DNA of 64,000 nt from Actinomycetota bacterium (GTDB lineage: Bacteria > Actinomycetota > AC-67): positions 2,031 through 66,030 of the forward strand of contig DATGHY010000358.1 of NCBI GenBank assembly GCA_035307625.1, in the 5' to 3' direction. The notes beneath the pieces are model-generated. The model was not told where the DNA came from. It searched no databases and saw nothing but the letters and a program-made list of their open reading frames with translations. A program made the position numbers and the translations under genes. Positions 3,797-42,771 of the stretch are shown piece after piece. Numbering within the stretch: the first letter of the stretch is position 1; the number at the start of each line of letters is the position of its first letter.

Positions 3797-4089
3797 TTAA
3801 AGAGCCTCGCGTCGTCGACCGAGGCCGACTGCTTGCGCCGGAATATCGCCACGATGATCGCAAGCCCCACGACCACTTCGGCCGCGGCGACGGCGATCAC
3901 GAAGAATGCCAGCACCTGACCGTCGAGCGTCCCGCTCATGCGCGCGAACGTGATGAACGTGAGGTTGACCGCGTTCAGCATCAACTCGATCGACATGAAG
4001 ATGATCAGTGCGTTTCGCCGCATAAGTACGCCGAGCGTGCCGATCGAGAACAGGATCGCGCCGACGATGAGGTACGCGCCCGGCGCCAT
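3790..4089 (-). CDS. nuoK: NADH-quinone oxidoreductase subunit K
   Basis: 99 aa, 3-TM protein ([34 protein letters not shown]), typical NuoK. Confidence 0.9.
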
Positions 4090-4625: not shown

Positions 4626-4647
4626 AGCCTCCCCCTCCTTTCCTTTC

Positions 4648-5223: not shown

Positions 5224-6385
5224 GGAACCTCCTCGGCATGGGCAGCAGCTTCGAGGGGTTCAGCGTGCCGCGCGCGCGGAACGTGAACCACGCGGCCCAC
5301 CAAAGGAACAGGACGGCGAAGATCAATCCCACCGAAGCGGCCAGGGTCGTGCGGCTCACGTACTGCGGCAGCACAACCATCACGGCGGTGACCATCACCC
5401 AGACGACCGAAACCGGGATCAGGATCTTCCAACCGAAGCGCATCAGCTTGTCGTAACGGAACCGGGGCAGCGTCGCGCGCACCCATATGAACAGGAACAC
5501 CATCACGCCGAGCTTGACCATGAACCAGATCACGGGCCAGATCGGGCGGACGAACGGGATGATCGGGCCGCGCCACCCGCCGAGGAACAGCGTCACCGCG
5601 ATGGCCGAGGTCGTGATGACGTGCAGGTACTCGGCGAGGAAGAACATCGCGAACTTGATCCCCGAGTACTCGGTGTGGAAACCGGCGACGAGCTCCGTCT
5701 CGGCTTCGGGAAGGTCGAACGGCGCGCGGTTGGTCTCCGCGAGCCCGGCGACCATGAACACAAGGAAGGCCGGTAACTGGGCGAAGATGAACCAGTGCGG
5801 GATGATGTGCCCCCACGTGCCCGCTTGCGCGTTCACGATGCCTCGCGGCGACAGCGTTCCCGCGTACATCACAACGGCGATCACTGACAGGCCCATCCCA
5901 ACCTCGTACGAGATCATCTGCGCGCTCGAGCGCACGCCGCCAAGCAGCGGGTACACGCTGCCGCTCGACCATCCAGCGAGCACGACGCCGTAAACCATCA
6001 AGCTTCCCATCGCGAGGAAGAACAGGATCCCGACGTTGAGGTCGCTGAGCTGCAGCGTGATCACGCGGTGGCCGATCCGGAAGTCCTGACCAACCGGAAC
6101 GATCGCGAACGACATGAACGCGGGGATCATCGCCGCCAGTGGCGCGAGCATGTACGTCATCCCGTCGACACCGGCCGGACGGATGTCTTCCTTGAAGAAC
6201 AGCTTGATACCGTCGGCGAGAGCCTGCAGCAATCCGAACGGTCCCACGCGGTTCGGGCCGATCCGCTGCTGCATGATGGCGACTACACGCCTCTCGGCCC
6301 AGATCGTGAACATCACGCTGACGAGCAGGAAGCCGAACGCAACGAGAACCTTGATCGCGTCGATGATGATGCCGAGCCCGTCCAT
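5210..6385 (-). CDS. nuoH: NADH-quinone oxidoreductase subunit H
   Basis: 391 aa; N-terminus ..[29 protein letters not shown].. is the NuoH/ND1 signature. Confidence 0.93.
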
Positions 6386-8805: not shown

Positions 8806-10078
8806 AGGGGCACCCGCCCTTCTCGATGTGATCCTTGTACTCGTTCGGGAAGAGCTTGATCGTCGACGTCACCGGCGCGATAGAGAAGTCGCCGAGCGCG
8901 CAGAAGGAGCGTCCCATGATGTTGCCTGCGACGTCGTCCATGATCGGCAGGTCTTCCATCCGGCCCCCGCCGTTCTCGAACCTCTCGAGCGTGTTCACCA
9001 TCCAGTACGTGCCCTCGCGGCATGGCGTGCACTTCCCGCACGACTCGTGCGCGTAGAAGCGCGTATAGCGAAGGGCTGCTCGGATCATGCACACGTCTTC
9101 GGCGAAGACGATGATCGCGCCCGTTCCGAGCAGCGAGCCCGCCGCCATCACGGACTCCCAGTCCATGTTCGTGTCGAGCTTGTCGGGACCGAAGAACTGG
9201 GTCGAGGATGCGCCGCCCGGCGTGAATGCCTTGAGCTTCTTCCCGCCCTTCACACCCCCGGCGAAACCTTCGATCAGCTCGCGGGCGGGCGTGCCGAAGG
9301 GGACCTCGTAGTTGCCGGGCCGCTCGACGTCGCCGGAGAGACAGAACACCTTCGTGCCGGGCGACTTCTCGGTGCCGAATCCCTTGAACCAGTCTGCGCC
9401 GTTGTTGATGATGTGAGGGACGCACGCGAACGTCTCGACGTTGTTCACGACGGTCGGCTTGGCGAACAGACCGTGCGTCGCGGGGAACGGCGGACGCAAG
9501 CGCGGCTGTCCACGGCGTCCTTCGATCGCTTCGAGGAGCGCGGTCTCTTCGCCGCAGATATACGCGCCGGCGCCCCGATGGATGATCAGGTCGAGGTCGT
9601 AGCCGGAGCCCATGATGTTCTTGCCGAGTATCCCGGCTTGGTACGCCTCGGCCGCAGCGCGCTCGAGCTGCCGCGCGGCATACGCGAATTCTCCGCGGCA
9701 GAAGATATACATCTCGTTGGAGCCGATGGAGTAGGCGCCGATCGCCATGCCTTCGATCAGCTGGTGTGGGTCGCGCTCTATCAGCTCGCGGTCCTTGAAC
9801 GTCCCCGGCTCGCCTTCGTCGGCGTTGCAGACGAGGTAGCTCGGCCGGATGTCCTTCGGGATGAAGCTCCACTTCGTGCCCGTCGGGAAGCCGGCACCGC
9901 CGCGGCCGCGCAGCCCCGAGGTCTTCACGATGTCGATGATCTGGTCGGGCGTCATCGACAGCGCCTTCTTCAATGCCTCGTACCCGCCGGTCTTGCGATA
10001 GCCGTCGAGGGTCGCGCCGTCGGGGGCGTCGAACCGCTGGGTGACGACCTTCGTTTGCTGCAGCGTCGAGGTGCTCAT
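8795..10078 (-). CDS. nuoF: NADH-quinone oxidoreductase subunit F (NADH/FMN-binding)
   Basis: Real start at internal ATG (MSTSTLQQT..), residue 111 of the 537-aa ORF, preceded by the nuoE stop. Contains the GLRGRGGAGFPTG FMN motif and C-terminal 4Fe-4S cysteines (CGKCTPCREG). Confidence 0.93.
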   Translation of the reverse strand: MSTSTLQQTKVVTQRFDAPDGATLDGYRKTGGYEALKKALSMTPDQIIDIVKTSGLRGRGGAGFPTGTKWSFIPKDIRPSYLVCNADEGEPGTFKDRELIERDPHQLIEGMAIGAYSIGSNEMYIFCRGEFAYAARQLERAAAEAYQAGILGKNIMGSGYDLDLIIHRGAGAYICGEETALLEAIEGRRGQPRLRPPFPATHGLFAKPTVVNNVETFACVPHIINNGADWFKGFGTEKSPGTKVFCLSGDVERPGNYEVPFGTPARELIEGFAGGVKGGKKLKAFTPGGASSTQFFGPDKLDTNMDWESVMAAGSLLGTGAIIVFAEDVCMIRAALRYTRFYAHESCGKCTPCREGTYWMVNTLERFENGGGRMEDLPIMDDVAGNIMGRSFCALGDFSIAPVTSTIKLFPNEYKDHIEKGGCPFDR

Positions 10079-10683
10079 CAGCGCGGCGCCTCCGCACCCG
10101 ACAGCCGGTGGTTGACGGGGCCGAACTCCTGCGGGACCTCGCCGCGCGCGCCCGGCGGAGGCTGCTCGCCCTGATGCAACTTCTTCACGAGGTCGACCGC
10201 GTCGTCGACGGTCATGCGTTCGTAGTTCTCGTAGTTGATGCTGAACACCGGAGCACCGTCGCACGCGCAGAGGCACTCGACCTCTTCGAGCGACACATCG
10301 CCGGCGGTTTCGCCGCACGCGATACCGAGCTCTTGCTCGAGTCGTTCCTGCAGCTGCTTCCCGCCGGCAAGCGCGCACGAAGGATGCGTGCACACGCTCA
10401 CGAGCCACTTCCCTTGCGGGTCTCGTTTGAACATCGTGTAGAAGGTCGCCACAGCGCCGACCTGCGCGCGCGTGAGACCGAGCAGATCGCCGATCTCGCG
10501 CATCGCCGCCGGTGACACGAAGCCCTGCTCTGCTTGTGCGAGGTACAGCATCGGCAGCAGCGCGCTCCGTGACTGGCCGGCCGGATAGCGCGCGATCAGC
10601 TTGCGCGCTTCCTCGTGGAACCGCTGCGAGAGCGGCGGCGCGTCGACGTGCTCGTGCGCCTTCCCCATGAGCGGCGTGTCCAT
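10078..10683 (-). CDS. nuoE: NADH-quinone oxidoreductase subunit E (24 kDa, 2Fe-2S)
   Basis: Thioredoxin-like 2Fe-2S motifs (CTHPSCALAGG, CLCACDGAP). Start taken at ATG 10681-10683 (MDTPLMGKAH..) just after the nuoD stop. An alternative ATG lies at 10668. Confidence 0.85.
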   Translation of the reverse strand: MDTPLMGKAHEHVDAPPLSQRFHEEARKLIARYPAGQSRSALLPMLYLAQAEQGFVSPAAMREIGDLLGLTRAQVGAVATFYTMFKRDPQGKWLVSVCTHPSCALAGGKQLQERLEQELGIACGETAGDVSLEEVECLCACDGAPVFSINYENYERMTVDDAVDLVKKLHQGEQPPPGARGEVPQEFGPVNHRLSGAEAPR

Positions 10684-10703
10684 CCAGCGCCCTTGGATGT
10701 CCG

Positions 10704-11978
10704 TCACCGATCGACCCCTCCCATGACCGGGTCGATGCTCGCCACGGAAGCGATCACGTCGGCGATCAAACCTCCGCGCACCATGTGCGGCATCGCTTGG
10801 AGGTTGATGAAGCTCGGGTCGCGGTCGTGCACGCGCCACGGCTTCGTCCCGCCGCTGGACACGATGTGGTACCCGAGCTCGCCGCGCGGGGACTCGATCG
10901 GCACGTAAGCCTCGCCGGCGGGAACCTTGAAACCCTCGGTCACGAGCTTGAAGTGATGGATCAACGCTTCCATCGACTCGCCCATGATCTTGCGGATGTA
11001 TTCGGGCGCGTTCCCGAGCCCGCCTTCGCCGAGCTGGAGCTGAGCAGGCCACGCGATCTTGCGGTCTTCAACCATGACCGGCCCATCGGGCAGCGATGCG
11101 GCGACCTGCTTGACGATCTTCGTCGACTCGCGCATCTCCTTGACGCGCACGAGATAGCGCGCCTCGCAATCCCCTGCTTCTTTCGTGGCAACCTCGAAGT
11201 CGTATTTCTCGTAGCCGCAGTACGGCGTCTGCTTGCGAAGATCGAGCGGAACACCGGCTGCTCGCAACAAAGGCCCCGTTACGCCGAGACCGAGCGCAAC
11301 GTCTGCTTCCAGGAGCCCCACGCCGCGGTTGCGGTCGATCCAGATCTGGTTCTCGGTCAGAAGCTCTTCGTATTCGTCGACCTTGGCGGGGAACGATTCG
11401 ACGAACGCGTTGACCTTTTCGAGCGTCCCCTCGGGCAGGTCGGTCGAGAGGCCACCGGGTCGGACGAACGCGTGGTTCATTCGCAGGCCCGTGACGTGCT
11501 CGAAGATGTCGAGGATCTGCTCGCGCTCGCGGAAGCCATACAGCATCATCGAGAGGGCACCGAGCTCCATCCCGCCGGTCGCGAGCCATACGAGGTGCGA
11601 CGCGATCCGATTCAGCTCCATCAGCATCACGCGGATCGCTTGCGCGCGCGCCGGCACCTCCGCGCCGAGCATCTTCTCGACGGCCATGCAGTACGCAGTC
11701 TCGTTGAAGAACGGTGCGAGGTAGTCGGCGCGGGTGACGAACGTCACGCCTTGCGTCCAGTTGCGCACCTCGGCGTTCTTCTCGATGCCCGTGTGCAAGT
11801 ACCCGACGACGGAGTGCGCGTTCACGACGGTTTCCCCGTCGAGCTCGAGCACCAGTCGCAGCACGCCGTGCGTCGAAGGATGCTGGGGGCCCATGTTGAC
11901 GATGAGGGTGTCCTCGCCCGTGCGCGCGACGAGCGTGTCCCAATCCTGGCCGCCGACAAAGACCTCGGGCTGGCTCAT
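10704..11978 (-). CDS. nuoD: NADH-quinone oxidoreductase subunit D (49 kDa)
   Basis: Start [10 protein letters not shown].. with GGAAGGA ribosome-binding site. NiFe-hydrogenase-large-subunit-like fold sequence. 4-nt ATGA overlap with the nuoC stop. Confidence 0.93.
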
Positions 11979-12529
11979 GACGTCCTTCCCGGGTAGCCGC
12001 TCGTCGTCGTCGGCTGCGTGCGGACATCGGGCGGCGGGATGAACGCGCCGTGAAACCGCACGTTCGTTCCGCCGAGCGGGTAATCCTTGCGCTGCGGATA
12101 GCCCTCCCACTCGTCCGGCATGAAGATGCGCCGAAGGTTCGGGTGGCCTTCGAACGTGATCCCGAAGAAGTCGTAGACCTCTCGCTCTTGGAAGTTGGCC
12201 CCCGGCCAGACGCTCGTGACCGTCGGGCAACGCTCGTCGCCGTCCGGGATCCACACGCGTAGGCGTATCCGATGCGGGTGGGAAGGCGACGACAGGTGGT
12301 ACGCGACCAGGAAACGGCGCTCGGGCGCGTTCAGGCCGAGATAGTCGACGGCGGAGAGGTCGGACAGCAGCTCGAAGGGCACGTCGTCACGCAGGATCTT
12401 GCCGAGGTCCGCGATACGGTCGCGCGCGACGTCGACGGACACCTCGCCGAAAGCCTCCGACGGCTCGGAAACGGCCATGGGAAACCGTTCACGAGCGTGG
12501 GTGACGATGGCCGCGAGACGATCGTCCAT
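11975..12529 (-). CDS. nuoC: NADH-quinone oxidoreductase subunit C (30 kDa)
   Basis: 184 aa; ..[40 protein letters not shown].. typical NuoC. Confidence 0.9.
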
Positions 12530-12531
12530 GC

Positions 12532-13011
12532 TCAGCTGCTCTTCGCGAAGTGGCTCGCGCGGATCTGCTCGTGCAGCTTCAAGATACCGTCCATCAGCAT
12601 CTCAGGACGCGGCGGACATCCCGGCACGTACATGTCGACCGGAACGATCTGATCGACGCCCTGCACGATCGCGTAGTTGTTGAACATGCCGCCTGAGGTC
12701 GCGCAGACACCCATCGATATGACCCACTTCGGCTCCGCCATCTGGTCGTAGATCTGGCGCAGCACCGGCGCCATCTTCTGCGACACGCGGCCGGCCACGA
12801 TCATCAAGTCGGCCTGGCGCGGCGACGCGCGGAAGACTTCCATCCCGAAGCGCGCGAGGTCGTAGTGCGCCGCACCGGTCGCCATCATCTCGATCGCACA
12901 GCACGCGAGACCGAACGTCGCCGGCCACAACGAGCCCGTGCGGGCCCAGTTGACGAACTTCTCGACGGTGGTGAGGAGAAGGCCGCTCGGAAGAGATTCC
13001 TCGAGCCCCAA
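12532..13011 (-). CDS. nuoB: NADH-quinone oxidoreductase subunit B (20 kDa, N2 cluster)
   Basis: 159 aa; ..[10 protein letters not shown].. and ..VPGCPPRPE.. motifs. Confidence 0.93.
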
Positions 13012-13443
13012 CTACGCTCCGATCTTTTCGGCCGGGCGCGCGCGCTCCATGATCATGCGGCTCACGGAATGGCGGATCGAACCTTCCTCTTCCCAATCGA
13101 GCCCGCCGGCGCGCCAGACGTAGAAGTACGCGACGAGCAGCAGCAAGACGAACGTACCCATCTCGGCGAGGCCGAACAGTCCGAGCTCGCGGAAGATAAC
13201 TGCGAACGGATAGAAGAAGATGACTTCGACGTCGAAGATGATGAACAGCATCGCGATCAGATAGAACTTCACCGGGAAGCGTTCGCGCGGGGCGCGCTCG
13301 GGCACGATGCCGCATTCGTAAGGCGCGAGCTTGGCCGGCGTCGGGTTCCTGGGGCCCACCTTAGAGGCGATGAAGATAGAGGCCACTGCGAACAGCGCCG
13401 CAAGGCCGAGCATCATCAGGATGGGCAGGTAATCAGAAAGCAC
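13012..13443 (-). CDS. nuoA: NADH-quinone oxidoreductase subunit A
   Basis: 143 aa, 3 TM, ..LAPYECGIVP..FDVEVIFFYP.. NuoA signature; first gene of the operon. Confidence 0.88.
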   Translation of the reverse strand: MLSDYLPILMMLGLAALFAVASIFIASKVGPRNPTPAKLAPYECGIVPERAPRERFPVKFYLIAMLFIIFDVEVIFFYPFAVIFRELGLFGLAEMGTFVLLLLVAYFYVWRAGGLDWEEEGSIRHSVSRMIMERARPAEKIGA

Positions 13444-13543: not shown

Positions 13544-14791
13544 TCACGAATGCACCATCCGATCGATCGCAGGCGCGTTGCGGACCAAGGCGTTGATCAG
13601 ACGGTCCGACGCCGCCCCATCGCGCGGCTCGGTGAGGTTCGCGAGGATCTTGAAAGCGAAGCGCATCAGCCACTCGCGCTTCATCCCGTGCTTGGTGAGC
13701 GAGCCCATAATCCGCGCGTTCCCGATCAGTTTCACGAACGTCCGTCCGAGGATGAAGTAGCCCTCGTACGTGTCGCGGAGCCGGTCGGGGTACGCGCGGA
13801 GCGCGCGCGGATCGCCCGCCCTGAGCGCATCGTCGGCCACTTCGGCCGCGATCGCGGCCGTCTCCATCGCGTATGCGATCCCCTCGCCGTTGAAGGGGTT
13901 CACGGCGCCGGCGGCGTCGCCGACCAGCATCAGGCCCGGCCGCGCCAGCGGCGTGCGATTGAAGCCCATCGGAAGCGACCCGCCCCTGATCTTCCCAACC
14001 TGGTTCTCGCGAGTCAGACCCCACTCCTTCGGGAGCCCGGCGACCCAATCCCACAGCAGCTTCTTGTAATCGACGGCCTGGAAGTGCTTGGACGTGTTGA
14101 GCAGCCCGAGCCCGACGTTCACCGTCCCGTCCGGCACCGGGAAAATCCAACCGTACCCGGGAAGCAGATCGTCGCCCGCCCAAAGCTCCAGGTAGCTCTC
14201 GAGGTAGTTGTCGTTCCACCGTGGGCTCTTGAAGTACGTGCGCACCGCAACACCCATCGGCCGGTTGTCGATCCGGTGGATGCCCAGCGGGATGCCGAAT
14301 CGGTTCGCGACACCGTCGCCGACGATCACAACCGGCGCGCGCACCTCGCCCCGGTCACCGTTCTTGTAGGAGACGCCGGTCACCACGCCATCGCCGTCGA
14401 CGAGCGGGCCGGTGACCTCCGTCTCCTCCCAGACCTCGGCTCCCGCCTTTCGAGCGTGATCGAGGAGCAAAGAGTCGAAGTCCAATCGCGTCTGAACCAG
14501 TCCGACGTGCGGCCACTCGTTGAGCTCGGGCCAGGGCAGCTCGAGCGTGACGCCACCGCCGATGATGCGGAGCCCGTCGGCGCGCGCCCATCCCGGACCA
14601 TCGGTCTCGACACCCATCTGATGCAACGCTTTGACCGCGCGCGGCGTGAGCCCATCCCCGCAGACCTTCTCGCGTGGGAAATGGGCCTTGTCGATGACGA
14701 CCACGCGGCGCCCGCGCGCAGCGAGGTGATATGCCGCCGTCGATCCCGCGGGTCCGCCGCCCACGATGGCGACGTCGAATGTGTCGGTCAC
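13544..14791 (-). CDS. Geranylgeranyl reductase family FAD-dependent oxidoreductase (menaquinone/isoprenoid side-chain reductase-like)
   Basis: N-terminal FAD fold DVAIVGGGPAGSTAAYHLA, conserved ..KVCGDGLTPRA.. and ..GDAAG.. motifs; 415 aa. Lies upstream of nuoA, as in many actinobacteria. Confidence 0.85.
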   Translation of the reverse strand: MTDTFDVAIVGGGPAGSTAAYHLAARGRRVVVIDKAHFPREKVCGDGLTPRAVKALHQMGVETDGPGWARADGLRIIGGGVTLELPWPELNEWPHVGLVQTRLDFDSLLLDHARKAGAEVWEETEVTGPLVDGDGVVTGVSYKNGDRGEVRAPVVIVGDGVANRFGIPLGIHRIDNRPMGVAVRTYFKSPRWNDNYLESYLELWAGDDLLPGYGWIFPVPDGTVNVGLGLLNTSKHFQAVDYKKLLWDWVAGLPKEWGLTRENQVGKIRGGSLPMGFNRTPLARPGLMLVGDAAGAVNPFNGEGIAYAMETAAIAAEVADDALRAGDPRALRAYPDRLRDTYEGYFILGRTFVKLIGNARIMGSLTKHGMKREWLMRFAFKILANLTEPRDGAASDRLINALVRNAPAIDRMVHS

Positions 14792-14819: not shown

Positions 14820-14837
14820 TTGTGAATGACTTCACAA
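14820..14837. promoter_or_regulatory. Rex operator (perfect TTGTGAA-N4-TTCACAA) in the divergent region upstream of the GGR-nuo genes
   Basis: Sequence TTGTGAATGACTTCACAA matches the Rex (ROP) consensus exactly. A rex gene is present in the window. Rex control of nuoA-N is established in Streptomyces. Confidence 0.6.
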
Positions 14838-19925: not shown

Positions 19926-21209
19926 TCAATGCTGATGGCGCGTCGCGGAGGCGTCGTCGGCCGGCATCAGATCCATCCCACACTTCGGGCAGCGACCAGG
20001 CCCCATCTGACGCACCTCCGGGTGCATCGGACAGACATGCTCTTGATCGGACTCGCCCGGCGGCGGCGGGTTCCCCATCATGCGCAACATCGCCGGCCCG
20101 CCGGTTCTCAGGAATCGCACAACGAGCACGCCGGCGATCACCAAGAAGATGACGTTAAGCACCGTCGTGTAGTTCAGCGTGATTCCGGCCTCGACCACTC
20201 TCGCGTTCCTGACCGATGGGATCAGATGCAGAGCGTCGAACAGCAGCTCTACGATCAAACCCGCGATAACCATCGTGGCGTAGAACGTTCCGAAGAGGAA
20301 CAGTCCCATCTTCGGCCCGTAGTACTTCCGATAGATGTTGAGGATCGGAAGGATGATCAGGTCCGCGAAGATGAATGCTACGACACCGCCGAAGCTGATC
20401 CCCCCGTTCCACAGCACCGCCGCCAGCGGAACGTTCCCGATCGAGCAGACGAACGACAGCATCGCAACGAGCGGCCCGATCAGCGGCCCCCACAGCTTCG
20501 CCAGCACTGGATGGTGCACGAGGAAGAACGACTGCCAGAAGGAATTCGGTACCCACGCTGCGAGCGCGCCGGCGATCAGCAACCCGATAGCGATGTCGCG
20601 GATGATCGACGCCCAATCCATCACGAAGTAGTGGCTGATCGCCGTGCGACCTTCGGGTGACCGGATGCGCTGCATCAGCGAACCTTCTCCGACCGACATG
20701 TCCATGCTCGCGTGCCCTTCCATCACGCCGAGCAGCCCTCGCTCGGCCTGCGCGCGCGCGGCTTCGACCATGCGCGGCTTGAGGAAGAAACGGAACAAGA
20801 CGGAAAGGATCACGACCATGATCACGCCGCCGACCACTTCCGCGAGCGCGAACTGCCATCCGATGAGAACGATGAGCAGTATCCCGAGCTCGATCACGAG
20901 ATTCGTCGACGCGAACTCGAACGCCATCGCTGCGGTGAAGTCCGCGCCTTTGCGGAAGATCGCGCGCGCAAGCGCGACCGCCGCGTACGAACAGGACGAC
21001 GACGCCGCGCCGAGTGCGGCTGCGATCGACAGGGAGCGCCGCGAATCGTCCGGCAGCAGCCGGCTCATCTCCGACTTCGAAACAACCGCCTGTACGACGG
21101 CAGACAAACCGAAGCCGAGGATCAGCGCCCACAGGACCTCCCACGTCATGGACGCGGACAGGTGAAGCGCGCGCACGATCGCGCCGCCGACGCTCGCGAA
21201 CGTGATCAT
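19926..21209 (-). CDS. COG0701-type permease with C-terminal heavy-metal-binding (CusB/P1B-ATPase N-terminus-like) domain
   Basis: Multi-TM permease body (..FASTNLVIELGILL.., ..SIGNVPLAAVLWNGGISFGGVVAFIFADLII..) plus C-terminal CPMHPEVRQMGPGRCPKCGMDL. Start ATG (MITFASVGG) overlaps the ccdA stop (TGATG). Confidence 0.75.
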   Translation of the reverse strand: MITFASVGGAIVRALHLSASMTWEVLWALILGFGLSAVVQAVVSKSEMSRLLPDDSRRSLSIAAALGAASSSCSYAAVALARAIFRKGADFTAAMAFEFASTNLVIELGILLIVLIGWQFALAEVVGGVIMVVILSVLFRFFLKPRMVEAARAQAERGLLGVMEGHASMDMSVGEGSLMQRIRSPEGRTAISHYFVMDWASIIRDIAIGLLIAGALAAWVPNSFWQSFFLVHHPVLAKLWGPLIGPLVAMLSFVCSIGNVPLAAVLWNGGISFGGVVAFIFADLIILPILNIYRKYYGPKMGLFLFGTFYATMVIAGLIVELLFDALHLIPSVRNARVVEAGITLNYTTVLNVIFLVIAGVLVVRFLRTGGPAMLRMMGNPPPPGESDQEHVCPMHPEVRQMGPGRCPKCGMDLMPADDASATRHQH

Positions 21210-22571: not shown

Positions 22572-22608
22572 TACGGCGGACCGCGCCCGATTGCGCCACA
22601 ATCTGTCC

Positions 22609-23160
22609 GTGCGCGCGCTCCGGCTCATCGCGATCCCGCTACTTGTCCTCTCTATCTCTTGCACGAGCACCACCGGCGCCTCCCCCTTCCCTGCGTGCAC
22701 GCCCCACAGCTTGACCTCGCAGGGGAAGGCCCTTCCCGATTGCACATTCGAGGGATTCAACGGGTCGCCGACGCTGAAGCTCTCGTCTCTTCGCGGAAAA
22801 CCGTCCGTCCTTAACTTCTGGGCGTCTTGGTGCATCCAATGCATCGGAGAGATGCCGGCCTTCCAGAAGGTCTATGCCTCGCTCGGCGGGAAGGTGGCGT
22901 TCGTTGGCATGAACGTCCTCAACCTGCAGGGCGAGACGATGGGCGCGGGTCGTTCCTTCGCGAAACGGACGGGCGTCCATTACCAGCTCGCGTTCGACCC
23001 GAACGGATTGCTCTACGGCCACTTCCAGAACCCCCTCCGCCCCGCGATGCCGATCACCGTCTTCGTGGACGCTCGCGGCATCGTGAAAGACTTGAACATC
23101 GGCGCGCTCGACGAAAGGAGCCTCCGCCAGAAGATCCAGGCCGACTTCGGCATCACGTAA
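22609..23160 (+). CDS. Second TlpA/ResA-family thiol-disulfide oxidoreductase (lipoprotein-like signal)
   Basis: GTG start (VRALRLIAIPLLVLSISCTS..); an alternative TTG lies at 22591. Thioredoxin motif FWASWCIQC; 183 aa. Confidence 0.78.
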   Translation: MRALRLIAIPLLVLSISCTSTTGASPFPACTPHSLTSQGKALPDCTFEGFNGSPTLKLSSLRGKPSVLNFWASWCIQCIGEMPAFQKVYASLGGKVAFVGMNVLNLQGETMGAGRSFAKRTGVHYQLAFDPNGLLYGHFQNPLRPAMPITVFVDARGIVKDLNIGALDERSLRQKIQADFGIT

Positions 23161-23238
23161 TCACATGCGCGCTGTTGCGTTCGCGCGCGCGAGAGGGAGA
23201 TAATCCGGCCTGCTCGACCGTATTTTTTTTGAGTGCTC

Positions 23239-23256
23239 TTGTGAACAATGTCACAA
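23239..23256. promoter_or_regulatory. Rex/CRP-type palindromic operator (TTGTGAACAATGTCACAA) upstream of the b6c-complex operon
   Basis: 17/18 match to Rex box TTGTGAA-N4-TTCACAA; also matches CRP/GlxR TGTGA-N6-TCACA. Centred about 71 bp upstream of a TATAAT at 23306-23311. Confidence 0.55.
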
Positions 23257-23305
23257 GCGCTGAGGAGGCATCACCGCTGCTTGGGAATGGGCTCGGACTC
23301 CCCCG

Positions 23306-23311
23306 TATAAT
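23306..23311 (+). promoter_or_regulatory. Candidate -10 hexamer (TATAAT) for the b6c-complex operon
   Basis: Perfect TATAAT about 35 nt upstream of the first gene's start; preceded by a TTGGGA-like -35; AT-richer patch in a GC-rich genome. Confidence 0.35.
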
Positions 23312-23344
23312 CCCCGTGCGGACTTCGTAGGAGGCTGTTGGTCG

Positions 23345-23764
23345 TTGATCGCAATCACCGATCTCACCTACCCCGACACGGCGAACCCCGTCCTTCTTCT
23401 CTATGAACTCCTGTACATCGGGATCGGGATCGCCCTCCTCATCGCTTCCTCGCGCGTGAAGAGCGAGTGGGTCAAAGCATCGCTCGCGGGATTCGGCCTC
23501 GCGATCCTTGCGCTGCGATTGCTTGCAGTTGTACCAAGCTGGTGGCTGTACTTCTCCGACTCGCACCTCCACTGGGGAGGCCAGGGCTGCACGGCGATCG
23601 ACGCGCAGTGCATCAAGCAGGCCGTTAAAGACACCGCGGTCGTGATCGAGAATGCGATCGTCCTCGGTGGTTTCGTGGTCGGGTTCTTGATCTGGCAGAA
23701 GAAGTTCCCGAAGCAGCTCGCGCCGGGTGAGTCCAAGCCCGAAGCGACGGGAGGCTACAAGTAA
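23345..23764 (+). CDS. Small integral membrane protein (3 TM), first gene of the b6c-complex operon
   Basis: TTG start preceded by AGGAGG ribosome-binding site; hydrophobic segments; stop overlaps the ferredoxin start (TAATG). Confidence 0.6.
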   Translation: MIAITDLTYPDTANPVLLLYELLYIGIGIALLIASSRVKSEWVKASLAGFGLAILALRLLAVVPSWWLYFSDSHLHWGGQGCTAIDAQCIKQAVKDTAVVIENAIVLGGFVVGFLIWQKKFPKQLAPGESKPEATGGYK

Positions 23765-24114
23765 TGTCGGCCCAGTCGAACAAGCCGCAGTTCTACGACG
23801 AGTACGACCTCAAGGTCGTCGACCCGAATTGGTTGCAGCAACGGGTCAAGCCGAAGCGGCACATCGGACTCGAGGCCGACCTCTGTATCTTGTGCCGCGC
23901 GTGCGAAGACGTCTGCCCGTGGGACTGCATCTATATGTTGTCCGGCGAGATCGTGGCGGACGCCGATCAAGCGGCGATCAAGGATGCTTCCGGCAACGCG
24001 GCCGCCGTGTTCGTCATCGACGACACGGAGTGCACGCGGTGCGGGATATGCGTGGACCGGTGCCCGTCGGACGCGCTGTTCTACATAACCGTCGGCGATC
24101 GGGCGAAGAAGTAG
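23764..24114 (+). CDS. 2x[4Fe-4S] ferredoxin
   Basis: Two canonical clusters: CILCRACEDVCP and CTRCGICVDRCP; 116 aa. Confidence 0.85.
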   Translation: MSAQSNKPQFYDEYDLKVVDPNWLQQRVKPKRHIGLEADLCILCRACEDVCPWDCIYMLSGEIVADADQAAIKDASGNAAAVFVIDDTECTRCGICVDRCPSDALFYITVGDRAKK

Positions 24115-24135
24115 CACGGTTCATCGGGGGGAAAC

Positions 24136-24921
24136 GTGGCAAAGGAAACGAAGCCGCTCCTGACGGAACAGATGGAGCTCCTGCGCGACAAGGTGCAGGA
24201 CTCGCAGGTATGGAAGTCGATCTTCCGTCCGGGTTCGTACCTTCGGAAGGGCTATCGCGACACGTCGCGCGACCGCGCGCTCGCGACGATGAACAATGTG
24301 CTCTACCACCTTCACCCCGTGAAGGTGAAGCGCCATGGCTTGAAGCTGACCTACACGTTCTGTCTCGGCGGTCTTTCGTTCTTCCTCTTCACGATCCTGA
24401 CGATCACCGGCATCTACCTGATGTTCTTCTACCGGCCGTCGGTCGACCTCCAGTCTGCGCAGGTTTACAAAGACATGCAGGACCTGTCGCAGGCGATCAC
24501 GTTCGGGCAGCTCGTCCGCAACATGCACCGCTGGGCGGCACACTTGATGGTGCTCACGGTGTTCTTGCACATGGCGCGCGTCTTCTACCACGGCGCGTAC
24601 AAGCCTCCCCGCGAGTTCAACTGGGTCGTCGGAGTCAACCTCCTGCAGATCACGCTGCTGCTTTCGTTCACCGGCTACCTGCTTCCCTGGGACCAGCTCG
24701 CGATCTGGGCGGTCACGGTGGGAACGAACATGATGGGCTACACACCCGTGTTCGGACGACAGGTGAAGTTCGTCCTTGTCGGCGGATTGGAGGTGGGGCC
24801 GCCGACGCTCATCCGTTGGTATGTCTTACACGTCTTAGCCTTACCCTTCGTCGCCGTGCTCCTTATGGCCGTGCACTTCTGGCGGATCCGTAAGGACGGC
24901 GGGATCAGCGGACCGCTCTAG
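24136..24921 (+). CDS. petB: Cytochrome b6-type (split cytochrome b, N-terminal 4-helix haem-binding half)
   Basis: 261 aa; haem-ligand histidines in ..[23 protein letters not shown]..; the cytochrome b N-terminal domain alone, as in b6f/Bacillus QcrB. Confidence 0.88.
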
Positions 24922-24932
24922 AGAGAGAGGCC

Positions 24933-25787
24933 ATGGCGGATCGCGAAGAAGTCGGGATCGATCAGGAAACCTTCGACAAGGCAATCGCCGAAGGGAAGCC
25001 TGAACGCGTCGCGCGCGCGCTGGCGAAGTCGGCGTACGTGCGGAAGACGCGCGGTCCTGCCGCGCCCGGAACTCCGAAGGCGGCACCCGCTGAGGGCGCG
25101 CCGGCGGAAGCGCCTGCCGCGGCTCCGGCCGCAGCGCCCGCTGCTGGCGCCGCGCCGGCTGCACCCGCGGCGTCGGCACCGACGACGGCAGTCGTCGAAC
25201 GCCTCAGCCCTGAAGAGCGGGCCGCGCGCGTCGCTGCAGCGACCGGCCGAAGCGCGACCGGGAACGGCGGCGGAGGCCGTGGGCTCGGCGGCGGCGAGGT
25301 CCACCGGCTGCTCGCCGTCGTTCCGCCCGAAGGCATCCAGCGAACGGTCAAACGTCAAGACGACAAGGTCAACGTATGGCCGCACTTGCTCGCGGCTGAG
25401 TTCCTCTCGCTCATCCTGATGACGGCGTTCCTCGTCGTCTTCTCGACGTTCAAGAACGCGCCGTTCCGAGAGCTGGCGAACCCAAGCCTCACGCCGAACC
25501 CGTCGAAGGCCCCGTGGTACTTCCTCGGACTCCAGGAGCTGCTGCGCTACTTCCACCCGCAGGTCGCCGGCGTGACGATCCCGGGTCTTGGTCTGTTCGG
25601 TCTGATGGCGGTGCCGTATGCGGACAAGAATCCAAGCATGCAACCGCACCGTCGCAAGCTGGCGATCATCCTCTTCACGATGTTCATGATGTTCTGGTCC
25701 GTCCTCGTCATCCTCGGCGTCCTCTTCCGCGGCCCCGGTTACAACTTCATCTGGCCCTGGAAGACCGGCGTCTTCTTCGATCTCTAG
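24933..25787 (+). CDS. petD: Cytochrome b6f-type subunit IV (cytochrome b C-terminal domain) with about 140-aa Ala/Pro-rich N-terminal extension
   Basis: C-terminal 3-TM domain with ..PSKAPWYFLGLQELLRYF.. (PEWY-type motif). N-terminal low-complexity AAPAEGAPAEAPAAAPAAAPAAGAAPAAPAA. Confidence 0.8.
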   Translation: MADREEVGIDQETFDKAIAEGKPERVARALAKSAYVRKTRGPAAPGTPKAAPAEGAPAEAPAAAPAAAPAAGAAPAAPAASAPTTAVVERLSPEERAARVAAATGRSATGNGGGGRGLGGGEVHRLLAVVPPEGIQRTVKRQDDKVNVWPHLLAAEFLSLILMTAFLVVFSTFKNAPFRELANPSLTPNPSKAPWYFLGLQELLRYFHPQVAGVTIPGLGLFGLMAVPYADKNPSMQPHRRKLAIILFTMFMMFWSVLVILGVLFRGPGYNFIWPWKTGVFFDL

Positions 25788-25805
25788 GCAGGGGGAACAA
25801 CAGCT

Positions 25806-26534
25806 TTGATCGCAAAGATCGGTGCCGGCACGTGGGTCATCATCGGGATCGCAGCAGCCATCGGAGGGCTCGGGTTCGGCCTGATGGCCATCAACGTGTT
25901 GGCGATCATCCGTCCGCGTCAGGCGGGTGAGCAGGGGCAGCCGCGGCCGCTCGTCGGCAAGCCGCGGCAGATGACTCGGCGCGCATTCTTCCGTCGGTTG
26001 CTCGGCGCAGCGTTCGGGCTCGCGATGCTCGACTTCGGCGCCGCCAGTCTCGCGTTCCTGTGGCCGAGCTTGGGAGGCGGCTTCGGCGGCAAGATCACAC
26101 TCGCGACGTCCGTCGACGACGTCAAGGCGCAGATCACCGCGACAAAGCAGCCCTTCTACTTCGCGCCCGGCCGCTTCTACCTCGTTCCCTACGACCCGAC
26201 CAACGACAAGCAAGGCATCTACAAGAACGCAGGTTTGCTCGCAGGCGGGTTGATGGCCCTGTACCAGCGCTGCGTGCACCTCGGCTGTCGCGTCCCGTTC
26301 TGCCAGGCATCTCAATGGTTCGAGTGTCCGTGCCACGGCTCGAAGTACAACCGCGCCGGTGAGTACAAGCTCGGCCCGGCGCCGCGCGGCCTCGATCGCA
26401 TGCCGCTCACGCTGAACGGCAGCATCCTCACGATCGATACCGGCAACATCCAGACGGGCCCGCCGCGCGGGACGAACACGACCGGACAGGACCCGGAGGG
26501 TCCGTTCTGCGTCGCACCGGTGGGCGGGCACTGA
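25806..26534 (+). CDS. petC: Rieske 2Fe-2S iron-sulfur protein (Tat signal)
   Basis: TTG start; twin-arginine leader TRRAFFRRLLGAAFGLA; Rieske boxes CVHLGC and CPCHGS. Confidence 0.9.
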   Translation: MIAKIGAGTWVIIGIAAAIGGLGFGLMAINVLAIIRPRQAGEQGQPRPLVGKPRQMTRRAFFRRLLGAAFGLAMLDFGAASLAFLWPSLGGGFGGKITLATSVDDVKAQITATKQPFYFAPGRFYLVPYDPTNDKQGIYKNAGLLAGGLMALYQRCVHLGCRVPFCQASQWFECPCHGSKYNRAGEYKLGPAPRGLDRMPLTLNGSILTIDTGNIQTGPPRGTNTTGQDPEGPFCVAPVGGH

Positions 26535-27412
26535 TGCTGGGTGCGATCCTCGCCATCAATTCGCGCGTCGGGACGGCGATCGCCGTCATCGGAGGCCTCG
26601 CGGTCTTCGGCTTGCTTCTCGTCCTCACCGCAGCAGGAGAGCTTCGCGGGCGCCGCAAGGCGCGCATCCCCGCCGCGTTCCGCCCGGGCCCGAGCGACGA
26701 AGAGCTGGAGAGCAAGGTCCTGGTCCGCTACATGCTTTGGGGTGGCGTCGCGCTGCTCGTCATCGCGCTGTGGCTGCCGGCGTACTGGTTCCACGAGCCG
26801 CGGCGCCTCGCGTCGGAGCAGAAGGCGATCGCCGCTGAGACGGTCGATCAAGGCAAGCAACAGTTCCTGACGCTGTGCGCACAATGCCACGGCACCGATG
26901 CGAGCGGCGGCGTCCGGACATACGTGATCGACGGGATCTCGCGGAACTACGCCGAGCCGCCATTGAAGTACATCTACGACCGGTACACGAAGGGCGGCCG
27001 AAACACCGACGACATCACGCAGATCATCTACGACGCGATCAACCGCGGCCGGCCGGGAACGCCGATGCCGACGTGGGGTCTTCCTTTCGGCGGCCCCCTC
27101 AACAGCCGGCAGGTCGACACGATCGTTGCGTTCCTACAGAGCATCCAACAGCCGTTCCCCGAAGCCGACACGATCGACGGCGCCGCACTTTTCCAAGCGA
27201 ACTGCGCGATCTGTCACGGCGCCAACGCGAAGGGCGGCGTCGGTCCGAACCTGACGGTCGAACTCCAGCGCAACACGCGGGATGAGGTCACGAAGACGAT
27301 CATGGATGGACGGCTGAACATCAACCGTCCATCGATGCCTGCGTGGGCGGGCCTCGGCCAGCCGGCGATCGAAGCGCTCGTTCAGTTCATCGAGAGCATC
27401 CAGGTGAGGTGA
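26534..27412 (+). CDS. Dihaem c-type cytochrome (membrane-anchored)
   Basis: Two CxxCH motifs (CAQCHG, CAICHG); N-terminal TM anchor; start overlaps the Rieske stop (TGATG). Confidence 0.88.
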   Translation: MLGAILAINSRVGTAIAVIGGLAVFGLLLVLTAAGELRGRRKARIPAAFRPGPSDEELESKVLVRYMLWGGVALLVIALWLPAYWFHEPRRLASEQKAIAAETVDQGKQQFLTLCAQCHGTDASGGVRTYVIDGISRNYAEPPLKYIYDRYTKGGRNTDDITQIIYDAINRGRPGTPMPTWGLPFGGPLNSRQVDTIVAFLQSIQQPFPEADTIDGAALFQANCAICHGANAKGGVGPNLTVELQRNTRDEVTKTIMDGRLNINRPSMPAWAGLGQPAIEALVQFIESIQVR

Positions 27413-27414
27413 CG

Positions 27415-28182
27415 ATGGCCTTCCTGCACCTCATCCCCCTCGCGTGCGACGGCTGCTGGTCGGGTTGGCAGGCGGTCCTCGGCCTCGTCATCGCCGTCAC
27501 CGTTCTGATCGGCAGCATCTACATGCTGCTCGCCTCGAACTTCGGCGCGCGCTTGGGCTACCTCGTCCTTATGGTTTCACTGATGGCGTGGATCATCCTG
27601 CTTTCCGCCATGTGGCTGTTCGGCCTTCCCGGCACGACGCCGGGCACCGGCCCGCGGGGTCAAGAAGCAGCCTGGATACCGTTCCTCCCGAGCAGCGATC
27701 AGGGGAAGGTCTTCGCCGACACGTTGAACACGTTCCCGAACGGCTCGACGTGGAAGCCGATCGGAACGTTGTTCTCGGGGAACGTCGACTCGAAGGGTGA
27801 GTTCGCCACCGTGCGGACCATCGTCCAGGAGTCTCTGGCCGCGCTGGCGGCCAAGCAGAAGCTACCGGCCACCGATCCGACCGACTGGAACTTCCGAGCA
27901 GCCGGCGTCCCGCCTTCCACGCCGGATGAACAGCCCTTCCCGCAAGCGCAGGTCGCCTTCTCGAAGACGGGCACGCCGTTGATCTTCGGCGTCGACATCC
28001 CGGCCACATCGAAGCACCCAGAGATCGTCGTGTTCGCGTACAAGAACAAAGGCAAGGTGTACCTGTATGCGCTCTACTTCTTGATCGTAGGGATCCTGGG
28101 CTTCGCCGCACACTTGTGGTTCCTCGCGCGCTACGAGCGACATCAGAAAGAACGCGACGAGGCGTTACAGCCCGCGGCTTAG
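27415..28182 (+). CDS. Membrane protein of unknown function, last gene of the b6c-complex operon
   Basis: ATG with GGTGAGGTGA ribosome-binding site; N-terminal TM helices, extracytoplasmic domain, C-terminal TM (..[21 protein letters not shown]..). Confidence 0.6.
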
Positions 28183-37029: not shown

Positions 37030-37722
37030 TTACGGCCGTGTGCTCTTGGAGGCGCTCGCCGTCAGCCGTTTGCCGCGACGCACGGTATCGAGCGCGCTTT
37101 TCCGCTGCTCGTAGAAGGAAAGGATCTGAAGCTCGATCGAGAGGTCGACCTTGCGCAGCGAGACGTCGTCGGGAACCTGCAGCACCGTTGGTGCGAAGTT
37201 AAGGATGCTCTTCACGCCCGCAGAGACGAGCCGGTCGGCTGCGTCCTGCGCCGCGCCAGCGGTCGTGGCGACGATCCCGATCGAGATCTCGCGCTCTTTC
37301 ACGATGCGCTCGAGGTCCGCGAAGTCCTCAACGACCATCGAGTCGACGGGCTTGCCGATCTTCGACTCGTCGATGTCGACCAGCGCGCTCACGCGGAACC
37401 CGCGCTCGCCGAAGCCGCGATAGTTCGCCAGCGCGCGCCCGAGGTTGCCGACGCCGACGATGACGCAGTTCCAATCCTGCGTGAGCCCGAGCTCACGGCT
37501 GATCTGATAGATGAGGTACTCGACGTCGTAACCGACGCCGCGGGTGCCGTACGAACCGAGGTACGAGAGGTCTTTCCGGACCTTCGCCGAGTTGACCCCG
37601 GCGGCTTCGGCAAGCCCTTCGCTCGAGATCGTCTGCATCCCGCGCTCGGTCATGTCCACGAGGCTTCGCAGGTACAAAGGGAGCCGCGCGACGGTCGCTT
37701 CCGGGATGGCGCGTTCTCTCAC
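37030..37722 (-). CDS. rex: Redox-sensing transcriptional repressor Rex
   Basis: N-terminal winged helix ..ATVARLPLYLRSL.. and Rossmann NADH-binding VIVGVGNLGRALANY. Confidence 0.9.
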   Translation of the reverse strand: MRERAIPEATVARLPLYLRSLVDMTERGMQTISSEGLAEAAGVNSAKVRKDLSYLGSYGTRGVGYDVEYLIYQISRELGLTQDWNCVIVGVGNLGRALANYRGFGERGFRVSALVDIDESKIGKPVDSMVVEDFADLERIVKEREISIGIVATTAGAAQDAADRLVSAGVKSILNFAPTVLQVPDDVSLRKVDLSIELQILSFYEQRKSALDTVRRGKRLTASASKSTRP

Positions 37723-37760: not shown

Positions 37761-37778
37761 TTGTGAGCGCAATCACAA
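37761..37778. promoter_or_regulatory. Rex operator (TTGTGAGCGCAATCACAA) upstream of the rex-hem operon (autoregulation site)
   Basis: 16/18 match to TTGTGAA-N4-TTCACAA. An extra TTCACAA half-site sits 15 nt upstream. Located 40-55 nt upstream of the rex start. Confidence 0.6.
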
Positions 37779-41849: not shown

Positions 41850-41962
41850 TGTTTCCACGACAAAGGCAAACCCGCCGCAAGGCGGGGACGCAAAGCCACG
41901 GGACCTTCCGCAGGGGTCAGCCGGGTTGCCGAAGGAGACGACGGAACGCAGTTGCCCGTCGA
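41850..41962 (+). ncRNA. Candidate c-di-GMP-I (GEMM) riboswitch in the 5' leader of the CAP-domain protein gene
   Basis: CACGACAAAGGCAAACC + CCCGCC-GCAA-GGCGGG GNRA hairpin + GGGACGCAAAGCCACGGGACC. Position-by-position match to the conserved GEMM-I core (Vc2: CACGCACAGGGCAAACC..GAAA..GGGACGCAAAGCCUCCGGCC). Sits in a 346-nt gene-free leader. Confidence 0.65.
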
Positions 41963-42027: not shown

Positions 42028-42771
42028 ATGGGAAAGCGTTTCGCATCTGGGGCGCTCGTTGTGTCGATGATCGTTGCGGGCATCGTGACGGTCGCGGCAG
42101 GTATCGCATCCGCATCGACCGCGAGCGATGAATCACACTTCGTTTCACTGATCAACTACGAGCGTACGACCGACACCAAGTCGTGGTCGTGCGGTCGCGC
42201 CGGCGGGCTCAACGCACTCTCGGTTGCAAGCGATCTCGTTGCAGTCGCGCGCAAGCACAGCGAGCAGATGGCTGCCAAGGGCACGATCTGGCACGACTCC
42301 AGCACGTGGAACTCGGTCAGCGGCTGGAGCGAGTACGGCGAGAACGTCGGGATGGGCCCGAGCGACATCTCCGACCCGGTGGGCAACCTGCACACCGCGT
42401 TCATGAACTCCTCCGAGCACTGCCAGAACATCCTCTTCTCGCACTCGAACCCGGTCTTCAACCAGGTCGGTGTCGGCGTGGTCATCTCGAACAACACGAT
42501 GTATGTCACCGAGATCTTCGTGCGCCGCTCTTCGGGCTCGAGCTCGACGACCTACCACCGCTCGACGACCACGCGCAGCACGACGACCCACCACACCACG
42601 ACCTACCACCCCGTCGCGTCCGTGACGCGCGCCGCCGCGGCGAAGCCAAAGCCGAAGCCGCTGGCCGCGCCGCCGGTCGCAACACCGCAGACGGTCGACC
42701 TGCTGGTCCGCATGATCGGCATGGACTCTGACAACGTCGATCCCGCAACAGGAGCAGCTGCAGGGTTTTAG
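42028..42771 (+). CDS. Secreted CAP-domain (SCP/PR-1-like) protein
   Basis: Signal peptide (MGKRFASGALVVSMIVAGIVTVAAGIASA); CAP motifs (..HSEQMAAKGTIWHDS.., ..HTAFMNSSEHCQNIL..); Ser/Thr/His-rich C-terminal linker. Confidence 0.8.
   Translation: MGKRFASGALVVSMIVAGIVTVAAGIASASTASDESHFVSLINYERTTDTKSWSCGRAGGLNALSVASDLVAVARKHSEQMAAKGTIWHDSSTWNSVSGWSEYGENVGMGPSDISDPVGNLHTAFMNSSEHCQNILFSHSNPVFNQVGVGVVISNNTMYVTEIFVRRSSGSSSTTYHRSTTTRSTTTHHTTTYHPVASVTRAAAAKPKPKPLAAPPVATPQTVDLLVRMIGMDSDNVDPATGAAAGF

Follow-up and report, generated by a model that had tools for sequence, protein, structure and literature searches.

Organization of the operon

The 64,000-nt stretch of an Actinomycetota genome analysed here, called the window (assembly GCA_035307625.1, contig DATGHY010000358.1), harbours seven adjacent genes that we number g1 to g7. 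They code for a small membrane protein, a NuoI-like iron-sulphur protein, cytochrome b6, subunit IV (SUIV), a Rieske protein, a dihaem cytochrome c and a second membrane protein (Table 1). The genes form an operon for a quinol:cytochrome c reductase of the b6 type with its own small iron-sulphur protein. Domains were assigned with Pfam and NCBIfam profiles, and transmembrane (TM) segments and motifs were read from the protein sequences. A previous, sequence-only reading of this DNA had proposed a seven-gene operon, and its gene models hold: all seven genes lie on the plus strand at the positions claimed for them, with agreement between the list of open reading frames (ORFs) and an independent gene call. 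The gene calls on a 14.5-kb ENA metagenome contig (L001) that encodes identical proteins match the window ORFs for all seven genes.

From g1 to g7, the successive intergenic gaps are -1, 21, 11, 18, -1 and 2 nt. No promoter-like site was found inside the cluster by a consensus promoter scan, and terminator-like matches within it are at background level, with 5 seen for 3.7 expected. The upstream boundary is a 184-nt intergenic region ahead of g1, and the downstream one is the convergent hemL gene, which overlaps the end of g7. Ahead of g1, a TATAAT hexamer and a Shine-Dalgarno sequence were read in the sequence. The hexamer was not called by the consensus scan because its spacing to a TTGGGA hexamer is 19 nt.

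For comparison, one genome per GTDB species was scanned, which yielded at least 595 stretches encoding b6 relatives. In the best 80 of these, the b6 proteins are 67-93% identical. The arrangement of the genes is far beyond chance, and the 80 best related loci share the gene order.

Table 1. Coordinates of the operon genes and of other features in the window.
Feature	Position	Strand	Description
nuoA-N	324-13443	-	Headed by the geranylgeranyl-reductase-like gene
nuoI	4648-5223		Genuine NuoI, inside the nuo operon
Geranylgeranyl-reductase-like gene	13544-14791	-	Heads the nuoA-N block
Rex-operator site	14820-14837		TTGTGAATGACTTCACAA; perfect match; between the geranylgeranyl-reductase-like gene and a divergent GT87 gene
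ArsP_1-family permease gene	19926-21209	-	Between ccdA and resB
TlpA/ResA-like thiol-disulfide oxidoreductase gene	22591-23160	+	189 aa, lipobox LSISC; AhpC-TSA + Redoxin, E 1e-14
Rex-operator-like palindrome	23239-23256	.	TTGTGAACAATGTCACAA; one mismatch to TTGTGAA-N4-TTCACAA; 89 nt before g1
TATAAT hexamer	23306-23311	+	Ahead of g1
GGAGG Shine-Dalgarno sequence	23330-23334	+	10 nt ahead of the g1 TTG start
g1	23345-23764	+	139 aa, 3 TM; TTG start; family unassigned by Pfam/NCBIfam
g2	23764-24114	+	116 aa; NuoI-like 2x[4Fe-4S] protein, two CxxCxxCxxxCP motifs
g3	24136-24921	+	261 aa; cytochrome b6; PF00033, E 4e-41
g4	24933-25787	+	284 aa; SUIV; PF00032, E 1e-9
g5	25806-26534	+	242 aa; Rieske [2Fe-2S] protein; PF00355, RR motif
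g6	26534-27412	+	292 aa; dihaem cytochrome c; PF13442 + PF00034, two CxxCH motifs
g7	27415-28182	+	255 aa; 3-TM protein, family unassigned by Pfam/NCBIfam
rex	37030-37722	-	PF06971 + PF02629
Rex-operator site	37761-37778		Two mismatches; 39 nt upstream of rex
c-di-GMP-I-GGC riboswitch aptamer	41856-41934	+	Rfam RF03167
CAP/cysteine-rich secretory family gene	42028-42771		Downstream of the aptamer
Clp1-type P-loop kinase and PF15698 genes	53213-55220	-	Adjacent genes

A b6-type core with an APWY motif

The best PDB matches of g3 are the solved cyanobacterial and chloroplast b6 proteins, with which it aligns over all four helices (E 2e-42). Its haem-ligand residues His130, His144, His232 and His247 are in register with His86, His100, His187 and His202 of b6 and are conserved among homologues. 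The locus thus combines a four-His cytochrome b with a neighbouring Rieske protein of the CxH...CxxH type, as in Rieske/cytochrome b complexes in general. The haem-ci cysteine, C76 (TFC76LGG), aligns with Cys35 of b6 (FYC35LGG), and g3 ends with GISGPL like the solved b6. The corresponding motif [LFY]CLGG, a form of the CxGG signature, is found in 78 of 78 g3 homologues. As for g4, it aligns with residues 31-138 of PetD, corresponding to helices E-G, and carries the Qo motif APWY, kept in 68/68 homologues. Also conserved among its relatives are the C-terminal tail FRGPGxNFxxPW and a Glu156-Phe157 pair, located at the position of PetD Phe40 near haem ci. Separate b6 and SUIV genes, 4+3 helices and CxGG are traits of the b6f-type ('green') branch; the presence of haem ci itself is predicted.

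The g3 protein has a cytoplasmic N-terminal extension of approximately 40 residues, whose conservation exceeds that of much of the membrane core. Cyanobacterial b6 proteins have no such conserved extension. This pattern is what one would expect of a docking surface. SUIV also starts with a long cytoplasmic extension, of approximately 145 residues (24933-25370), which comprises an Ala/Pro-rich low-complexity stretch at about residues 40-85. The latter extension is variable among relatives and has no counterpart in canonical PetD.

Its motifs, APWY and CxGG, assign the complex to the APWY clade defined by Kao & Hunte (2014), whose members have a split cytochrome b, CxGG and APWY at the Qo site (PMC4122944). 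The clade comprises delta-Proteobacteria, Chloroflexi, Nitrospirales, Planctomycetes, Symbiobacterium and Actinobacteria, and a split cytochrome b was recorded in Rubrobacter, Patulibacter, Conexibacter and Ilumatobacter (PMC4122944). The sequence-only reading had regarded a split cytochrome b as unusual for Actinobacteria, a view that the deep-branching cases and the clade described in 2014 contradict (PMC4122944). Among the four actinobacterial strains, none of which the paper singles out as bearing APWY, Ilumatobacter is probably the one that has it. We regard the APWY clade as the probable equivalent of subfamily G of Dibrova et al. and of groups A1/A2 of Baymann et al. In subfamily G, short cytochromes b reportedly co-occur with cytoplasmic FeS/NAD(P) oxidoreductases in Planctomycetes.

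The operon departs from the clade in two respects. The context of CxGG is [LFY]CLGG here, whereas WCMGG is said to be typical of the clade, and the literature searched does not mention genes for the ferredoxin, g1 or g7 in the clade.

Distribution of the operon in Actinomycetota

Nearly all of the best 80 loci carry Actinomycetota labels (Nitriliruptorales, Egibacteraceae, Euzebya, Acidimicrobiales and Microthrix), and one is labelled 'uncultured bacterium'. The order ferredoxin, b6, SUIV, Rieske, cytochrome c is found in every locus with enough sequence, and g7 comes next in most of them. The ferredoxin gene g2 is directly upstream of the b6 gene in 79 of the 80 loci, i.e. in every locus having DNA upstream of b6, and the median intergenic gaps in the related loci range from -4 to 22 nt. 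Ferredoxin identity is 36-40% in Acidimicrobiia, with adjacency to b6 still kept. The cultured Salsipaludibacter albus (GCA_019798055.1) harbours the same seven-gene order, with hemB/hemL on one side and resA/ccdA/resB/resC on the other. As this order is shared by the related loci and by S. albus, the arrangement is typical of the lineage and not an oddity of the source genome. The sequence-only reading had counted the ferredoxin gene, g1 and g7 as part of the operon, and across related loci these three are indeed conserved members of it.

That reading also took the operon to be at odds with its actinobacterial context. Instead, we found it to be the standard form of this enzyme in a large, little-studied group of Actinomycetota that includes Acidimicrobiia and Nitriliruptoria. 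In a genome survey of one order of Acidimicrobiia, this type of cytochrome b is counted as Complex III (PMC12008989). The alternative then envisaged, a standard and already characterised complex III of the source lineage, is correct in its first part but not in its second, since the complex is biochemically uncharacterised.

Relation to other Rieske/cytochrome b systems

A complex with split b6 and SUIV unlike the actinobacterial QcrCAB had been predicted, and this is borne out by the profiles: the QcrB, QcrA and QcrC models (NF050120, NF050121 and NF050122) give 117, 30 and 45 bits, far under their respective cut-offs of 500, 275 and 200. The gene order is different as well. The two systems are found in the same phylum and have a dihaem cytochrome c and a Rieske protein with an extra N-terminal TM segment and an internal twin-arginine translocation (Tat) motif in common, and cta genes are located nearby in some relatives of the operon. 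In contrast, the cytochrome b of QcrCAB is an unsplit eight-helix protein without haem ci. The complex is thus non-canonical relative to QcrCAB, yet a large group of Actinobacteria has it as the standard enzyme, and its clade has been known since 2014.

Resemblance to cytochrome b6f extends from b6, aligned over four helices, to SUIV, aligned with PetD, and to the Rieske protein, which resembles PetC. However, cytochrome f, PetG, PetL, PetM and PetN are missing here, APWY replaces PEWY at the Qo site, b6 and SUIV each start with a long extension, and the operon has an extra ferredoxin gene. A class I dihaem cytochrome c subunit and APWY at Qo set the complex apart from b6f sensu stricto. With the b6c complexes of Bacillus and heliobacteria (QcrABC/PetCBDX), it shares a b6 type in Gram-positive bacteria, menaquinol oxidation as predicted here, the haem-ci cysteine and c-type haem acceptors. 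Those complexes differ by their PDWY or PEWY motif and low-potential Rieske protein. In addition, the gene order is not that of Bacillus, where Rieske, b6 and SUIV genes follow one another and the cytochrome c is fused to SUIV; here g4 has no CxxCH, and the cytochrome c is encoded by a separate gene after the Rieske gene. The denomination 'b6c-type' used in the sequence-only reading is therefore apt for the architecture but not for the lineage, as g3 scores higher with the ExtP model (298 bits) than with the b6 model (200 bits).

In full, g3 reaches 297.6 bits with ExtP (NF040969; cut-off 290), 200 with the b6 model PRK03735 (cut-off 325) and 117 with QcrB (cut-off 500). Passing the ExtP model indicates an APWY-type core, like that of the Geobacter ExtHIJKLMNOPQS cluster. 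Nevertheless, ExtP is the only Ext protein whose model is passed: ExtQ gives 44 bits for a cut-off of 150, and ExtO has no match. No multihaem ExtKL/M/N/S, porin or rhodanese is encoded in the operon, and no multihaem or porin genes are present in its flanks either. ExtM, for its part, is a cytochrome with 12 haems and no ferredoxin (PMC5877670). We consider the PGAP name 'selenite/tellurite reduction operon b-type cytochrome ExtP', found on several relatives (P0037, P0049, P0099, P0110), as an over-annotation. Actinobacterial b6 proteins receive it because the NF040969 cut-off is barely cleared, as illustrated by the window protein, and we reject it since the operon lacks the remainder of the Ext system and ExtM is multihaem.

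The NuoI-like protein and a proposed function for the complex

The best database and PDB matches of g2 are NuoI and polyferredoxin units. It matches Fer4 families with E 8e-14 and NuoI with E 1e-11, the latter under the cut-off. It does not qualify as a NuoI equivalog, with 44 bits for TIGR01971 (cut-off 113) and a location outside a nuo operon. The genuine NuoI of the window is 29% identical to g2, and the two proteins are colinear across the N-terminal flank and the insert between the clusters. The g2 protein has a conserved N-terminal extension of 35 residues and a 25-residue insert between the cluster motifs. All 8 Cys as well as Tyr14, Val19, Asp20, Trp23, Leu24 and His33 are invariant in 40 homologues, and both 4Fe-4S motifs are kept in 79/79. 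As g2 has neither a signal peptide nor a Tat motif, it should be cytoplasmic. The family is small and narrow, with 589 close homologues of 113-133 aa, and a profile search against 1.84 billion representatives found only 10 members at E <= 1e-30. The g2 and g3 genes are in the same reading frame. Three apparent ferredoxin-b6 fusions (P0368, P0397, P0492) turned out to be frameshift artefacts, in which the two recognisable parts are separated by Arg/Pro-rich sequence read out of frame.

We propose, with a probability of roughly 0.7, that the locus encodes a respiratory menaquinol:cytochrome c oxidoreductase that operates a Q cycle and has a bound cytoplasmic iron-sulphur port. It would be the equivalent of complex III typical of Actinomycetota other than Actinomycetia. 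Menaquinol would be oxidised at the Qo site made by b6 and SUIV with its APWY motif. One electron would pass from the Rieske cluster to the membrane-anchored dihaem cytochrome c and on to a haem-copper oxidase, and the other would cross the membrane through haems bL and bH and haem ci for menaquinone reduction in a Q cycle. In this proposal the NuoI-like protein would be a subunit bound at the cytoplasmic side, where its own conserved N-terminal extension and that of b6 would keep it in place. It would connect the low-potential chain, at the bH/ci end, with a redox partner in the cytoplasm and so serve as an n-side electron port, for flow in one direction or the other. The N-terminal extensions of g2 and g3 rank among the most conserved segments. 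That the ferredoxin is bound to the complex we consider only slightly more likely than not.

Alternatively, the complex might be an ordinary Q-cycle enzyme of the b6c type, and the ferredoxin a co-transcribed soluble carrier or a factor for maturation or assembly, for instance of haem ci or of an FeS cluster, with g1 and g7 as assembly factors. The operon does lie among maturation genes (resA, ccdA, resB, resC and hem genes), and the sequences of g1 and g7 are poorly conserved. Furthermore, no genuine ferredoxin-b6 fusion was found in the profile search of 1.84 billion representatives, and a PDB search found no solved Rieske/b complex with a g2-like chain. However, g2 is NuoI-like, given its identity and colinearity with NuoI, and not of the 55-aa clostridial type. 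Its extension is invariant at several positions, and b6 has a conserved cytoplasmic extension of its own. The ferredoxin-b6 adjacency is also kept in every locus examined, across classes. We thus hold this explanation to be unlikely, albeit one to reckon with.

Electrons might also enter through the ferredoxin, from cytoplasmic donors to haem ci or bH and then to menaquinone, or the whole complex might run in reverse. The sequence-only reading had put forward such an input, which would amount to a bound form of the ferredoxin:quinone reductase activity long debated for b6f. Haem ci has been proposed to take electrons from ferredoxin in b6f (PMC5600118), and APWY has been tied to reverse operation by Kao & Hunte (PMC4122944). 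Yet the operon encodes no enzyme that would reduce ferredoxin, none is conserved in its vicinity, and there would be little obvious need for such a route in aerobic heterotrophs, which makes it improbable.

The Rieske protein and the cytochrome c

The g5 protein has the cluster boxes CVHLGC and CPCHGSKY and the twin-arginine motif MTRRAFFRR. CPCHGSxY is found in 65/65 of its homologues, so that the two residues of the high-potential signature, Ser and Tyr, are kept throughout. These residues raise the potential of the cluster, and the signature is used to predict values of at least +300 mV. On the basis of these two residues, g5 is predicted to be a Rieske protein of the high-potential type. 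Its best solved relative is 9rk4, the Kuste4569 Rieske protein of Kuenenia stuttgartiensis (E 1.9e-14), with an identical FECPCHGSKY segment. The midpoint potential of Kuste4569 is +303 mV, and its host uses menaquinone-7. The parent complex has a cytoplasmic FeS/NAD(P) reductase, and electron bifurcation to NAD(P)+ has been proposed for it.

The Kuenenia complexes (Kuste4569-4574 and Kustd1480-1485) resemble the one described here by their b6-type core with haem cN, predicted for the present complex, by a Rieske protein with the high-potential Ser/Tyr signature, whose host may here too be a menaquinone organism, and by an iron-sulphur protein predicted on the cytoplasmic side. They differ in several ways. 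The 116-aa g2 consists of Fer4 domains only and has no flavin adenine dinucleotide (FAD) or NAD(P) domain, unlike the n-side oxidoreductases of anammox bacteria with their NAD(P)-binding flavoprotein domain. SUIV has three helices here and five there, the cytochrome c is dihaem here instead of the hexa- and octahaem and HAO-like proteins there, and the host here is an aerobic-type actinobacterium. The locus looks like a pared-down relative of the Kuenenia systems, with a two-cluster 116-aa protein for the flavoprotein, a three-helix SUIV and a dihaem cytochrome c.

This similarity raises the possibility that quinol drives electron bifurcation by the complex, a mechanism proposed for the Rieske/b complexes of anammox bacteria. 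One electron would go through the high-potential Rieske protein and cytochrome c to O2, and the other through bL/bH and the 2x[4Fe-4S] subunit to a cytoplasmic ferredoxin or another low-potential acceptor, instead of or beside menaquinone at Qi. The invariant Ser and Tyr in the Rieske homologues, the closeness of Kuste4569 with its potential, menaquinone host and n-side reductase, and the cytoplasmic location of the ferredoxin are in line with this idea, and haem bP would lie near -475 mV if potentials are symmetric about that of menaquinone. However, full conservation is seen for the CxGG cysteine and for the part of SUIV that surrounds haem ci. Conservation of this cysteine and of Glu156-Phe157 suggests a working quinone-reduction (Qi) site, which argues against bifurcation. 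There is no FAD/NAD(P) domain, and the predicted control by Rex and adjacency of cta genes, described below, fit plain respiration. The potentials are predicted from two residues only, and the use of menaquinone is deduced. We consider bifurcation decidedly improbable.

The preferred reading, a Q-cycle menaquinol:cytochrome c oxidoreductase with a ferredoxin port, meets difficulties of its own. Low-potential quinones are usually paired with Rieske proteins below +200 mV, and a Rieske protein with Ser and Tyr is unusual in a menaquinol oxidase with an ordinary Q cycle. No member of the APWY clade has been characterised in vitro or in vivo, and Kao & Hunte suggest that APWY complexes may run in reverse (PMC4122944). 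With a predicted local distance difference test (pLDDT) score of 49.9, the AF2 model of the g2 monomer is too poor for a fold search. The Rex site described below is absent from loci of the Nitriliruptoria type, including that of S. albus. The fusion search mentioned above, which found no genuine case, counts on the same side.

The g6 cytochrome is membrane-anchored by two N-terminal TM helices and has its haem-binding motifs at positions 115 (CAQCH) and 224 (CAICH). Its best PDB matches are dihaem cytochromes of the CcoP type (E 2e-11), with mycobacterial QcrC at merely E 3e-4. Among its relatives, 40 of 63 have two CxxCH motifs and the other 23 have one. With the starts as called, both g5 (25806-26050) and g6 (26534-26780) have an extra N-terminal TM helix ahead of the anchor helix. 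The twin-arginine motif of g5 is therefore internal, at residues 57-58. This layout recalls actinobacterial QcrA, a multi-helix protein that requires both the Sec and the Tat machineries.

The membrane proteins g1 and g7

Neither g1 nor g7 has a match in Pfam or NCBIfam, and the conservation of both sequences is poor. We propose that they are lineage-specific structural or assembly subunits. The g1 protein comprises three hydrophobic helices and a conserved C-terminal tail, GGY[KR]. It was found by tblastn in only about half of the related loci, and an ORF with 2-3 TM segments is located directly 5' of the ferredoxin gene in nearly all of them. The C-terminal signature of the ORF at this position is GGY[KR] in one group and YGRPL[VI][KR] in Acidimicrobiia. 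As for g7, it is present at the same position in 52 related loci, and its 135 homologues all come from Actinomycetota and are all annotated as 'hypothetical'. Its AF2 model (pLDDT 88.5) predicts two N-terminal helices, a periplasmic alpha/beta domain of approximately 140 residues and a C-terminal helix. A search of the PDB with this model gave no fold match (best E 0.18, TM score <= 0.2).

Implications

Members of the Acidimicrobiia, Nitriliruptoria and related groups abound in soils, in activated sludge and in saline and marine environments, and genome surveys book their enzyme simply as 'complex III'. In the literature searched, which excludes Dibrova et al. 2013 and ten Brink et al. 2013, we found no description of the conserved NuoI-like ferredoxin gene, the two lineage-specific membrane proteins, the Rieske protein of the high-potential type or the predicted control by Rex. 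If the ferredoxin is a true subunit, the central respiratory enzyme of these groups has an iron-sulphur port on its cytoplasmic side, next to haem ci. This would bear on the purpose of haem ci, on electron exchange between b6-type complexes and ferredoxin, and on bifurcation by Rieske/b complexes to low-potential acceptors as proposed for anammox bacteria. If bifurcation did take place, reduced ferredoxin would be made from menaquinol in widespread aerobic Actinomycetota, and the complex would be a minimal, culturable counterpart of a mechanism proposed but unproven for anammox bacteria. As cultured hosts such as S. albus have the same operon, the complex is accessible to experiments in an aerobe, unlike those of anammox bacteria.

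Rex sites and genomic context

The operon is part of a respiratory and haem island, in which the genes follow one another in the order nuoA-N, the geranylgeranyl-reductase-like gene, resC, resB, ccdA, resA, the operon, hemL, hemB, a UbiE-like methyltransferase gene, hemD/cobA, hemC, hemA and rex. Three sites in the window match the Rex operator consensus, for 0.01 expected, and 45 of 73 related loci also have a Rex-like site ahead of the operon. With a predicted operator close to the promoter and rex itself in the same genome, the operon has the hallmarks of a Rex regulon member. The three sites, ahead of the nuo block, the Rieske/b operon and rex, suggest a small Rex regulon.

Neither a second cytochrome b nor a haem-copper oxidase was found in the 64-kb window. 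Among the 45 large related loci, 18 have divergent genes with CoxI (GHPEVY) and CuA (CxEFCGxxHxxM) motifs 2-5 kb upstream (L008, L016, L018, L025, L030-L033, L036, L042, L043, L045, L051, L055, L059, L061, L071, L082). The Rex site and the oxidase adjacency point to mainstream quinol-to-oxidase respiration. The TlpA/ResA-like gene, 184 nt upstream of the operon, adjoins it in only some relatives, and its product is probably accessory.

A few other features of the window deserve mention. The ArsP_1-family permease has a C-terminal heavy-metal-binding domain (HMBD) of the CPxCGM type. Its gene interrupts the cluster for cytochrome c maturation, and none of the 45 large related loci has it beside the operon. 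The c-di-GMP-I-GGC aptamer scores 78 bits (gathering score 59, E 7.5e-17) and lies approximately 90 nt upstream of the CAP/cysteine-rich secretory family gene. Lastly, the Clp1-type P-loop kinase protein (PF16575) encoded beside a PF15698 'Phosphatase' protein is reminiscent of the polynucleotide kinase/phosphatase modules of RNA repair.

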